Source of the DNA: an uncultured Subdoligranulum sp.
GTDB taxonomy: Bacteria > Bacillota > Clostridia > Christensenellales > CAG-314
NCBI GenBank assembly: GCA_902496185.1
Contig: CABUZX010000001.1
Coordinates: 64,509 to 128,508, forward strand
Reading direction: 5' to 3'
Length of the DNA: 64,000 nucleotides
Part shown: in pieces, positions 51,307 through 54,535 of the stretch
Layout: the number at the start of each line of letters is the position of its first letter
How positions within the stretch are numbered: the stretch's first letter is position 1
The notes under the pieces: generated by a model
The model's database searches: none
The model's input: only the letters and a program-made list of their open reading frames with translations
Told to the model about the DNA's origin: nothing
Translations under genes and position numbers: made by a program

Positions 51307-51681
51307 TTAACAACCACAATCGCATCCGTTATCATCTGAATGACAGCAAGAGCAATCTTCATGCTCACAACCGCAATCGCATTCCATTTCTTCATCATAG
51401 CGACGACAATATTCACCATAAACTTCTTCCAAAAGAGCCTCGTCCTCTATTGGATTAAGCATAAATTCTTCGCCCGACTCATCTACTTCGTAAATAAGAA
51501 GCTCGCCCTCATTGATATCTTCCATTTGCTCTGCAGGGCTTATACAAAAATACTTTTTACCTTTGTAGTCAAACTCATCTTCAAAGTAAAAATTCTTTTG
51601 AGTGCCGTCGTCCATAGTCAATACAATATAATCAGCATCTTCTTGAAGTTCTAAATTTTCATTAATTTTTTCGTTTTCCAT
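51307..51681 (-). CDS. DUF1292 family protein with Cys/His-rich C-terminal tail
   Basis: The core (YIVLTMDDGTQKNFYFEDEF...GELLIYEV) is like B. subtilis YrzB, which also follows ruvX. The tail reads CDCGCEHEDCSCCHSDDNGCDCGC. The ATG at 51681 follows GGAGGA. The ORF-track start is TTG at 51693. Confidence 0.8.
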   Translation of the reverse strand: MENEKINENLELQEDADYIVLTMDDGTQKNFYFEDEFDYKGKKYFCISPAEQMEDINEGELLIYEVDESGEEFMLNPIEDEALLEEVYGEYCRRYDEEMECDCGCEHEDCSCCHSDDNGCDCGC

Positions 51682-51703
51682 AAATTCCTCCAAAATATGT
51701 ATA

Positions 51704-52165: not shown

Positions 52166-52199
52166 AAAAAAGAGAAGATTTTTTTTCTTCTCTTTTTTT
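52166..52199 (-). terminator. Rho-independent terminator after the 42-aa ORF
   Basis: The stem agagaag/cttctct has A/T extensions and a T-run. Confidence 0.6.
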
Positions 52200-52200
52200 G

Positions 52201-52329
52201 TTAATTTTTTTTACTTAACATTTGCTTGCCTTTGTCTACCATTTGCTTAAATGCGGGACAAAATTCCATTGCCACTAAACCACCGGTAAAACCGATAGTC
52301 ATAGCTAACATAACTTGTGAAAATTTCAT
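52201..52329 (-). CDS. Small (42 aa) hydrophobic protein, not in the ORF track
   Basis: The sequence is MKFSQVMLAMTIGFTGGLVAMEFCPAFKQMVDKGKQMLSKKN. A strong SD, AAGGAGGTG, lies 6 nt upstream of the ATG at 52329. The stop is TAA at 52201, and its own terminator follows. Confidence 0.6.
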   Translation of the reverse strand: MKFSQVMLAMTIGFTGGLVAMEFCPAFKQMVDKGKQMLSKKN

Positions 52330-52395: not shown

Positions 52396-52767
52396 CTATT
52401 TATCTTGTTTTTGACGATAATCTTCTATTGCCTTTTTTATCGCTTCTTCCGCCAAAACGGAACAATGCAACTTTTGCGGTGGCAAACCCTCAAGCTCCTC
52501 AACTACTTGAGAATTGGTAATCTTTAAAGCTTCGTCAAGAGTTTTACCTATTACCATATCGGTTGCAGTACTGCTTGTTGCTATTGCCGCAGTACATCCA
52601 AAGGTTTGAAATTTTGCATCAATAATTACGTCATTTTCTATTTTTAAAGTTATTTTCATTATATCGCCACAGGTAGGATTACCTACTGTACCCTCTCCGT
52701 CGGCATTTTCAATTACCCCAACATTATGTGGATTTGCAAAAACTTTTAAAACTTTTTCATTATACAT
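52396..52767 (-). CDS. iscU: Fe-S cluster assembly scaffold (IscU/NifU N-terminal type)
   Basis: It has NPTCGD, FGCTAAIA and LHCSVLAEEA cysteine blocks. Confidence 0.92.
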   Translation of the reverse strand: MYNEKVLKVFANPHNVGVIENADGEGTVGNPTCGDIMKITLKIENDVIIDAKFQTFGCTAAIATSSTATDMVIGKTLDEALKITNSQVVEELEGLPPQKLHCSVLAEEAIKKAIEDYRQKQDK

Positions 52768-54364
52768 TTTTTATTTCTCCTTCCTTCAAAGCAAATAACG
52801 GCGACATCATTCTTAATTTTTCGATTATTGCCTTTAATTTATCAACCGTATAATCTATTTGAGACATAGTATTATGCTTTCCTATGGAAAAGCGAATAGT
52901 TCCGTGTGAAATTTCTATAGGAACACCCATAGATAGCAAAACGTGTGACGGATCTAAGCTACCACTACTGCACGCAGAACCACTTGAAACTGCGATTCCT
53001 TCAAAATCCAGCAACATTAAAATGCTTTCACCTTCAATAAATTCAAAACTAAAACTTGCGTTACTCGGCAATCTTTCCGTAGGATGACCATTGTAGTGCG
53101 CGTAGAGAATTTCCTCTTTAACGCGCTTAACAAAAGCATCTCTTAAGGACTTGATATGTTGATTGTTTATTTGCATATCTTTTACTGCTTTTTCTATGGC
53201 AAACCCCATGCCGACCACTGCCGGCGTATTGGTTGTTCCGCCTCGCATACTTCGCTCTTGTCCACCGCCAAGAATCATTTTTTGAATTCGTATACCGTTT
53301 TTAATATATAACGCGCCAACGCCTTTTGGTCCATAAAACTTGTGCGCAGAAAGACTGAGTAAATCAACGTCAAGATCTTTAACGTCAACAGGTATAGAAC
53401 CAACAGCCTGAACCGCGTCAACATGGAAGATAACCTTATGCTTGTGAGCAACCTCGACAAGCTGTTTAATGGGTTGTATAGTACCCACCTCGTTATTTGC
53501 GTACATTATACTGACAAGCGTTGTATCGGGCCGAATTGCTCTTTCAAGCTCGTCAACAGAAACCATTCCGTACTTATCCACCGGTAATATTGTAACCTCA
53601 AATCCGTTATTCTTTAACCAATCAACTGAATTCAAAACGGCATGATGCTCAATAGCGCTTGTTATAACGTGTTTGCCTACTGATGCTTTTTGTAATGCAA
53701 TACCCTTTATGGCCCAATTGTCAGCCTCTGTTCCGCTACCGACAAAATAAATTTCAGACGGCTGAGCGTTTATAGCTTCTGCTACCTGCTTTCTCGCTTT
53801 ATCAACACCAGCCATTGCTTCCCTACCGAAAAAATGCTGACTATGGCTATTTCCATAAATATCCGTCATATATGGCAACATCGCCCTTAAAACGTCATTA
53901 TCAAGAGGTGTAGTTGCCGCATGATCCAAATAAATACGTTTATTTTCCTGTGAGGCGTCAATTAGTTGCTGAAGGCTAATTCCATCAAGATATAAATTTA
54001 TATGATTGTAAAGATTTTGCCAAAGACCACGCGAAATACATGAACACTGCGAAACACAATTACATTGTACTTTTGTATTTGTACTTAAGCAATCTACAAT
54101 TTCAAGATTGTCTTCGACTGACCTTAAAATTTTACCCACGCTTATATTAAGTGGCTTATCGGTTAATTTATATCCACCCATAGCCCCTCTTTGACTAACA
54201 ACTATTCCTTCCTTTTTTAGCTTTGCAATAATTTGCTCTAAATAGCCGTCACTTACGCCTATTTCATTAGCCAAATCCACCGTACTGATAAAATCTTCAC
54301 CATACCTTTCGGCAAGTTTTATACATGCGTATAAACCATATCTGGCTTTTGTTGACATTTTCAT
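52760..54364 (-). CDS. Fusion protein: Rrf2-family (IscR-like) transcriptional regulator + NifS/IscS-type cysteine desulfurase
   Basis: Residues 1 to ~140 are Rrf2 (MSTKARYGLYACIKL, wHTH, Cys cluster VQCNCVSQCSC). From ~142 the sequence is a class V aminotransferase (IYLDHAATTP, PLP Lys in SAHKFYGPKG, active Cys in SSGSACSSG). It is a single 534-aa frame with no stop. Confidence 0.85.
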   Translation of the reverse strand: MKMSTKARYGLYACIKLAERYGEDFISTVDLANEIGVSDGYLEQIIAKLKKEGIVVSQRGAMGGYKLTDKPLNISVGKILRSVEDNLEIVDCLSTNTKVQCNCVSQCSCISRGLWQNLYNHINLYLDGISLQQLIDASQENKRIYLDHAATTPLDNDVLRAMLPYMTDIYGNSHSQHFFGREAMAGVDKARKQVAEAINAQPSEIYFVGSGTEADNWAIKGIALQKASVGKHVITSAIEHHAVLNSVDWLKNNGFEVTILPVDKYGMVSVDELERAIRPDTTLVSIMYANNEVGTIQPIKQLVEVAHKHKVIFHVDAVQAVGSIPVDVKDLDVDLLSLSAHKFYGPKGVGALYIKNGIRIQKMILGGGQERSMRGGTTNTPAVVGMGFAIEKAVKDMQINNQHIKSLRDAFVKRVKEEILYAHYNGHPTERLPSNASFSFEFIEGESILMLLDFEGIAVSSGSACSSGSLDPSHVLLSMGVPIEISHGTIRFSIGKHNTMSQIDYTVDKLKAIIEKLRMMSPLFALKEGEIKNV

Positions 54365-54380
54365 ATTTTACCTCACAATA

Positions 54381-54403
54381 ATTCCTATTGTTTTGATAGG
54401 AAT
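54381..54403 (-). promoter_or_regulatory. Palindromic operator candidate (ATTCCTAT-N7-ATAGGAAT) at the transcription start of the Rrf2-NifS gene
   Basis: The inverted repeat is a perfect 8+8 bp. It sits immediately downstream of the -10 box and upstream of the SD. Confidence 0.5.
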
Positions 54404-54432
54404 AATATATCACTATATAAATGTTTAGTCAA
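54404..54432 (-). promoter_or_regulatory. Sigma-A type promoter of the Rrf2-nifS/iscU operon
   Basis: On the - strand: TTGACT (54432-54427), 17 nt, TGA-TATATT (54409-54404). Confidence 0.55.
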
Positions 54433-54494: not shown

Positions 54495-54535
54495 TAAAGA
54501 CGCGTATTGAATAAAAATCAATACGCGTCTTTTTT
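54495..54535 (-). terminator. Rho-independent terminator after glyA
   Basis: The 14-bp stem is aagacgcgtattga/tcaatacgcgtctt, with T-runs on both sides. Confidence 0.8.

Follow-up and report, generated by a model that had tools for sequence, protein, structure and literature searches.

An Rrf2-family regulator joined in one reading frame to a NifS cysteine desulfurase in an uncultured Subdoligranulum sp.

The fused reading frame and its relatives

We analysed a 64-kb stretch of DNA (the window) from an uncultured Subdoligranulum sp. (contig CABUZX010000001.1), which encodes on its minus strand a single polypeptide that joins an IscR-like regulator of the Rrf2 family to a NifS-type cysteine desulfurase and is followed directly by nifU, the gene of the scaffold for iron–sulfur (Fe–S) cluster assembly. 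An earlier note on this DNA had proposed an in-frame fusion of 534 amino acids (aa) at 52760-54364, and its coordinates, strand and length proved exact, with both domains complete. The open reading frame (ORF), as given by the ORF listing of the window, and the parts on which the argument rests are laid out as follows.

52760..54364, minus strand: fused rrf2–nifS ORF, ATG start, 534 aa
53957..54364, minus strand: Rrf2 (IscR-like) winged helix–turn–helix domain, residues 1-136 (Pfam, NCBIfam, alignment, PDB match 4CIC)
54038..54091, minus strand: cysteine loop, residues 92-109, with C92, C103 and C109 as putative Fe–S ligands (alignment)
53936..53956, minus strand: linker, residues 137-143 (DASQENK), standing in place of the ancestral overlapping stop/start junction; the peptide reads …LIDASQENKR/IYLDHAATTPLDNDVLR… across the junction
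52763..53935, minus strand: NifS cysteine desulfurase domain, residues 144-534 (TIGR03402 above cut-off)
53339-53341, minus strand: K342, the lysine that holds pyridoxal 5′-phosphate (PLP)
52970-52972, minus strand: catalytic C465
52396..52767, minus strand: nifU/iscU scaffold gene (TIGR03419, NifU_clost, 199.8 bits, cut-off 187.9)

In Pfam searches both domains come out complete: the Rrf2 model (PF02082) matches residues 3-136 (E 2.7e-33; profile positions 1-131 of 132; 115.3 bits, cut-off 30), and the class V aminotransferase model (Aminotran_5) matches residues 144-505 (E 1.9e-89; profile positions 1-370 of 371). The N-terminal part passes the Rrf2 superfamily model TIGR00738 (110 bits, cut-off 73.3), and the C-terminal part scores 545.1 bits with the NCBIfam NifS model TIGR03402, above its equivalog cut-off of 530.75 and along the whole profile (1-379 of 379). 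The best PDB match of the Rrf2 domain is 4CIC, the IscR of Thermincola potens (E 1.5e-21), followed by CymR structures in second to fourth place and by E. coli IscR. In the AlphaFold2 (AF2) monomer model both domains are folded, with a mean predicted local distance difference test score (pLDDT) of 78.9, and the fold of the NifS domain matches IscS and NFS1 chains in Foldseek at TM-scores of 0.89-0.95, normalised to the target. Confidence is low at the cysteine loop (87-107; pLDDT below 50), as would be expected where the loop needs a cofactor, and in the linker region (138-151). No PDB chain spans Rrf2 and NifS together, either by sequence search or by fold (Foldseek). Membership of the MocR/GabR proteins, which also combine a winged helix–turn–helix with a PLP domain, was rejected: Pfam gives Rrf2 and not GntR, and the PLP domain is of class V and catalytically intact.

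The 534-aa sequence is found unchanged in NCBI, ENA and Logan. The identical protein is encoded by the independent assemblies ERZ27260661 (ENA) and ERR1110322 (Logan), and its 90% cluster holds 11 full-length members on about 31 contigs. A sequencing or assembly error could in principle have produced an apparent fusion, because the ancestral genes overlap by 1-4 nucleotides (nt) in different frames and a single indel error that erased the stop/start junction would mimic one; the earlier note had raised this doubt itself. That explanation is effectively refuted by the recurrence of the same ORF in independent assemblies, by orthologues at 52-82% identity that are fused in frame through linkers of varying length, and by a fused junction from which the Shine–Dalgarno (SD) sequence and the start codon are missing.

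A whole-protein search found 16 clusters carrying both Pfam domains, 493-534 aa long and at 52-99% identity. With residues 1-200 as the query, an exhaustive HMMER search of a 50%-identity representative library added at least nine more distant full-length fused clusters (504-538 aa), all of them Pfam-confirmed and one with a 90% cluster of 1875 members. It is thus not the case that all relatives carry two separate genes. In the alignment, the C-terminal helix of the Rrf2 part (…ISLQQL…) passes via 5-9 variable residues into R-[IV]-Y-L-D-H-A-A-T-T, which is the extreme N-terminus of unfused NifS (the unfused protein P0013 begins MRVYLDHAATT).

Separate genes are nevertheless the majority state. 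A census with the N-terminal 195 residues against the 90% cluster database, in which the word prefilter favoured short proteins, is informative solely on this point: it returned about 100 clusters of stand-alone 134-aa Rrf2 proteins at 53-61% identity and, among fusions, truncated fragments only. In a GTDB scan with a junction profile, 79 of the 80 loci among the matches listed have separate genes, locus L007 being the sole fused one among them. The GTDB tblastn matches that seemed to span the junction were mostly separate genes joined by the tool, which was settled by checking the ORFs, and the taxonomic range is undersampled.

Junction, conserved residues and predicted operator

The closest unfused NifS (P0013, 71% identical) is found in an Eubacteriales metagenome-assembled genome that is syntenic with the window, the shared gene order being RseC, thioredoxin, serine hydroxymethyltransferase (SHMT), Rrf2, NifS, NifU, a small ORF, RuvX, DUF1292, S2 and EF-Ts. 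At this locus (L001) the Rrf2 protein has 132 aa and is 52% identical to the Rrf2 domain of the window; the TGA of its gene overlaps the NifS ATG as TGATG, with GGAGG 8 nt upstream (...GGAGGAAATTTGATG...). In the unfused loci L093 and L094 the two genes overlap as ATGA, and the three loci alike are syntenic, with an Rrf2 of 132-134 aa and an overlap with NifS of 1 or 4 nt. The three-gene arrangement that the earlier note had assumed to be usual in clostridia is therefore found in these loci, in the 79 GTDB loci with separate genes among the matches listed, and in the cpe1786-iscS-iscU genes of C. perfringens (PMC2940859).

Because the unfused Rrf2 and NifS genes lie in different frames, a small indel would be enough to fuse them: loss of the overlapping stop/start (TGATG or ATGA, preceded by an SD sequence) would have put Rrf2 and NifS in one frame through about seven residues. 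The fused loci were checked for internal initiation that would give free NifS, and their junction has neither a conserved SD sequence nor a canonical start codon; a weak internal promoter-like match at 54023-53995 is within chance expectation. At the other junction, the SD sequence of nifU lies inside the 3′ end of nifS and, consistent with the overlap claimed before, nifU begins within the fusion, its ATG and the stop of the fusion both lying in the 8 nt that the two share (ATGTATAA); nifU is predicted to be translationally coupled to the fusion. This junction (GAAGGAGAAA..ATGTATAA) is kept in the window, L091, L090, L092 and L007, and takes a variant form, CAAGGAGGAAA, in L004, with no overlap in L089. 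Since the SD sequence and start codon of the rrf2–nifS junction are lost while the nifS–nifU signal is kept in the clade of the window (group A), the fusion appears to be obligate and not a leaky read-through. As translation of the ancestral genes was coupled before they were joined, the fusion would alter proximity more than stoichiometry.

The Rrf2 half keeps the residues expected of a DNA-binding member of its family. The helix-3/wing motif Lx3Gx6Gx2GGx2L, described together with the minor-groove arginine (R59 of E. coli IscR) in PMC9338935, is present as L49-KKE-G53-IVVSQR-G60-AM-GG-YK-L67, with R59 as the wing arginine, and the 13 fused proteins compared, which come from two clades, all share Y41, E43, Q44, R59, G60, G63, G64, L67, C92, C103 and C109. 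Five cysteines (92, 101, 103, 107 and 109) do make up the Cys-rich region that had been put forward as cluster ligands, but just C92, C103 and C109 are invariant across fused homologues; C101 falls in a six-residue insertion peculiar to this lineage, and C107 is kept in part of the clade only. The three invariant cysteines align with the engineered Cys-to-Ser positions of T. potens IscR in 4CIC, at a spacing longer than that of C92, C98 and C104 in E. coli. The label IscR, given to the regulator in the earlier note, thus holds in so far as Gram-positive IscR (4CIC) comes nearest to the domain, and does not extend to a fourth ligand of the E. coli His107 type.

In the NifS half, H341, K342 (the PLP lysine of the S-x-H-K motif) and the SSGSAC loop S460-C465 are invariant in 18 sequences, as are R491 and the C-terminal MSPLF motif in fused and unfused NifS sequences. 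Within group A, identity is 68-81% for the Rrf2 domain and 66-84% for the NifS domain. The ratio of non-synonymous to synonymous substitution rates (dN/dS) is 0.056-0.079 for Rrf2 and 0.025-0.116 for NifS where dS is unsaturated, dS being saturated in most pairs so that three estimates were usable for Rrf2 and six for NifS. Judged by these ratios, both domains are under purifying selection.

Upstream of the fusion lie the following signals.

54404..54432, minus strand: sigma-70-type promoter, -35 TTGACT, 17-nt spacer, TG-extended -10 TATATT (10/12 matches, with TG)
54381..54403, minus strand: predicted operator, inverted repeat ATTCCTAT-CAAAACA-ATAGGAAT (N7) with core TTCCTA-N9-TAGGAA, beginning one base past the -10 box
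54371..54374, minus strand: SD sequence GAGG, 6 nt before the fusion ATG (sequence inspection)

The promoter is the best minus-strand match in the region, and the same architecture is found in L091, L092 and L001. The palindrome that had been marked at 54381-54403 is present on the minus strand; the window has a single copy of its 21-nt core at 0 mismatches, and no additional copies beyond chance. The box recurs at the same position in the fused loci L091 and L092 and in the unfused loci L001, L093 (ATCCTAGCAAAACAATAGGAA) and L094. Since fused and unfused relatives share the operator, the fused regulator would have kept the target of its ancestor, and this retention is the main argument that it would still bind DNA. 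As for regulators of the IscR type, the predicted operator lies at the promoter of the regulator's own Fe–S biogenesis operon.

In a second clade, group B (P0011, P0016, P0121 and others), the fused genes stand among neighbours unlike those of group A. The group-B NifS domain falls outside a grouping of group A with unfused NifS (82% bootstrap), and a single fused clade of A and B receives 0%; with bootstraps for group-A monophyly of 31% on NifS and 0% on Rrf2, which do not resolve it, the claim is limited to A and B being separate. The group-B promoter box ACTTGACTAAAAAGGTAGGGTAT matches the E. coli type-1 IscR consensus (confirmed in PMC6599224) at 21-22 of 25 positions, a value reached by 0 of 500 shuffles, and the group-A operator matches it at no more than 18/25, which is not significant. 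The different neighbours and the type-1-like box of group B indicate separate origins of the fusion. More distant fused clusters (P0131, P0135, P0197, P0220 and P0246) join an IscR domain with canonical C…C…C-x2-H ligands to IscS-like or divergent desulfurases, P0220 and P0246 with much longer linkers of about 20-25 residues, and P0222 has a degenerate Rrf2 domain without the cysteine loop. The architecture is thus rare but recurrent.

The group-B boxes lie at 3972-3996 in L004 (22/25) and 2974-2998 in L089 (21/25), at distances of 29 and 27 nt before the fused genes, where they overlap the ribosome-binding region and not the -10 box. Just upstream of the fusion in group-B genomes (L004 1924-3407), a second class V aminotransferase (374 aa) and a Se_S_carrier-family gene flank a divergent promoter region, which suggests that a separate sulfur or selenium mobilisation module adjoins the fusion.

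The remaining features of the unit in the window are these.

54496..54532, minus strand: intrinsic terminator after the upstream SHMT gene (15-bp stem, 6 GC pairs, T-run)
52201..52329, minus strand: small hydrophobic ORF, 42 aa, conserved, last gene of the unit, found behind nifU whether or not the locus is fused
52166..52198, listed on the plus strand: palindromic terminator-like hairpin closing the unit

The strong predicted terminator after SHMT isolates the rrf2–nifS transcription unit, and the closing hairpin, with its symmetric A-run, stem and T-run, would serve the minus strand too. Downstream of nifU, all loci, whether fused or not and in group A as in group B, have an ORF of 42-47 aa (52201-52329 on the minus strand of the window; L001 5680-5814, L093 4150-4290, L004 6031-6168, L089 5126-5269). 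Its product has a hydrophobic segment rich in Gly and a tail of basic character (M-K-x…G…E…GK…), has no Pfam match on record, and appears to be a small membrane protein of the Fe–S operon, conserved but unannotated. One protein, P0097 (525 aa, Aminotran_5 and NifU_N), joins NifS to NifU across the second of the two overlapping junctions (…TEGENIMYNQK…); it was seen on a single 3.5-kb contig and is either real or a frameshift error.

Two genes downstream, a DUF1292 protein ends in an acidic tail whose final 40 residues include 10-13 Cys (CDCGC / CxC repeats; window 51307-51693 on the minus strand, L091 5661-6065, L090 5695-6162, L092 3611-4027, L001 6345-6752). The Cys tail is kept in fused and unfused relatives and nearly gone in L094 (3 Cys), and may be a metal- or cluster-binding extension adjoining the Fe–S operon. 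Just upstream of SHMT, the genes of a thioredoxin (106 aa) and of an RseC/MucC-family protein (146 aa) overlap (window 55856-56609, minus strand), and the pair is syntenic with the Fe–S operon in most group-A and unfused relatives.

Proposed function and competing explanations

We consider it fairly probable that the protein is obligately fused and bifunctional, a Gram-positive IscR-type repressor with a competent NifS, and represses itself via the ancestral operator. The NifS half would supply sulfur to NifU, its translationally coupled scaffold, and the three-Cys loop of the Rrf2 half probably binds an Fe–S cluster. The Rrf2 half would bind TTCCTA-N9-TAGGAA just downstream of its own -10 box, at +1, and the fusion bound there would shut off the unit of rrf2–nifS, nifU and the small ORF. 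Because the Rrf2 half would sit on the operator of its own promoter, the enzyme would repress the synthesis of itself and of NifU. As to the direction of regulation, we infer that repression is most likely strongest when the cysteine loop holds a cluster made by the tethered NifS–NifU pair, which may load it in cis.

Several points weigh against this proposal. The 59-kDa product, its DNA binding and its cluster are predictions from sequence. The Rrf2 part scores below the IscR equivalog models (TIGR02010, 106.4 bits against 207.55; NF008110, 69.8 against 275) and below the CymR equivalog model (NF047409, 94.4 against 195), and because both lie under their cut-offs the sensed signal is uncertain. 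The fourth ligand, His107 in E. coli IscR, is absent, a nearly invariant arginine (R112) standing three residues past the third Cys. The operator is only partly conserved in L090, where it is weaker, and in L007, where a half-site is found. The AF2 monomer gives low confidence over 138-151, where a 7-residue linker must join two dimerising modules. Last, no second Rrf2 protein and no other NifS or desulfurase is encoded within the 64-kb window, which is the extent of the search, and a stand-alone IscR or desulfurase may lie elsewhere in the genome.

The regulator might sense cysteine or persulfide and not a cluster, with DNA binding governed by the catalytic state of NifS (substrate, or persulfide on C465), whether through allostery or through sulfuration of the cysteine loop, as a covalent analogue of the CymR–CysK complex of B. 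subtilis. CymR and IscR models indeed score nearly equally (94 and 106 bits), CymR structures take places two to four among the PDB matches, and ATAGGAATT, which forms the right half of the operator, may resemble the CymR box. Cysteine limitation, moreover, induces the Rrf2–iscSU operon of C. perfringens (PMC2940859). We nevertheless regard cysteine sensing as unlikely: the three invariant cysteines are in register with the ligand positions of IscR, a triad that CymR of B. subtilis is not known to have, the unfused ancestors have the same operator without a NifS tether, and the CymR equivalog cut-off is not reached. More doubtful still is that the Rrf2 part no longer binds DNA and is kept as an N-terminal Fe–S or dimerisation module for the enzyme, the palindrome being a relic or the site of another factor. 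The degenerate Rrf2 domain of P0222, which lacks the cysteine loop, indicates that regulator function was lost in some fused lineages, and the weak operators of L090 and L007 would fit as well, but the recognition-helix and wing residues are invariant, dN/dS of the Rrf2 domain is about 0.06-0.08, and the operator stands at its ancestral position in the window, L091 and L092.

Conversely, the NifS part might be a non-catalytic sensor of the MocR/GabR kind, with another desulfurase doing the catalysis. The order of a winged helix–turn–helix followed by a fold-type-I PLP domain is analogous, but we hold this to be very improbable, as the NifS model is passed above its equivalog cut-off, none of the catalytic residues varies, dN/dS matches the low value of free NifS, nifU is still translationally coupled by its sequence, and the window contains no other desulfurase. 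To return to a self-repressing, catalytically competent fusion, we put forward tentatively, as a conjecture with little claim to likelihood, that its tethered sensor would be loaded in cis, or persulfurated by the mobile C465 loop, and so report the output of the machine and not cellular demand, which would alter the logic of Fe–S homeostasis; the short linker may force higher-order or DNA-tethered assemblies of the desulfurase. Cluster hand-off and DNA tethering had been suggested as possible consequences in the earlier note, which presumed the dimers of the two proteins to be compatible. If this conjecture were true, the repeated independent origin, in clades whose operators and ligand schemes differ, would point to a regulatory advantage open to selection.

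Comparison with known systems

The components and the regulatory logic of this unit are known; the covalent Rrf2–NifS linkage is the new part, and a full-text search of one literature library found no publication on an IscR/Rrf2–NifS fusion. Public records, where named, call the protein a cysteine desulfurase of the NifS or IscS subfamily. Such names give no hint of the regulator, and the IscR of these gut Clostridia would therefore be missed when regulons are reconstructed. How IscR-type sensors acquire their cluster has been argued from indirect evidence, as low-priority clients that report demand or by direct receipt from IscS–IscU, and a natural, conserved and repeatedly evolved covalent IscR–NifS protein makes this question testable.

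The nearest counterparts are the clostridial IscR–IscS–IscU operons of C. perfringens and T. potens. In C. perfringens the Rrf2 protein Cpe1786 is co-transcribed and co-regulated with iscSU in the order cpe1786-iscS-iscU-trmU, unfused (PMC2940859), and Cpe1786 was later reported to be an IscR repressor in a reference cited in PMC6599224. In these operons, as in the window, the Rrf2 gene comes first, the Cys triad is in register, an operator lies at the operon's own promoter and NifU/IscU follows, whereas here regulator and desulfurase are one polypeptide, at a stoichiometry of 1:1, and the SD sequence and start between the genes are lost. With E. coli IscR the fusion shares the Rrf2 fold, E43, Q44, R59, a Cys triad from C92 and an autoregulated Fe–S biogenesis operon (PMC6599224, PMC9338935). 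E. coli IscR, however, holds a [2Fe-2S] cluster by Cys92/Cys98/Cys104/His107 and recognises type-1 and type-2 sites; here R112 replaces the fourth-ligand His, the IscR equivalog scores are not reached and the operator of group A departs from the type-1 consensus.

CymR of B. subtilis and S. aureus, with CysK as co-repressor, is likewise an Rrf2 regulator of sulfur metabolism that works with a PLP enzyme, and its model scores similarly; cymR also adjoins a nifS-like gene in Bacilli, as seen in Bacillaceae loci of the GTDB scan. The Rrf2 domain described here stays below the CymR cut-off. CymR is not known to have the Cys triad and binds CysK non-covalently. Among proteins that unite a DNA-binding domain with a pathway enzyme or enzyme-like domain in one polypeptide are the trigger enzymes PutA, BirA and NadR and the MocR/GabR regulators. 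Their DNA-binding domains belong to the ribbon–helix–helix, BirA-type helix–turn–helix and GntR families, without an Fe–S sensing loop, and the PLP domain of MocR proteins acts mainly as a sensor. In contrast, the protein of the window combines the Rrf2 DNA-binding family with a full set of catalytic residues, and would add an Fe–S-sensing member to the small set of enzyme–repressor fusions.

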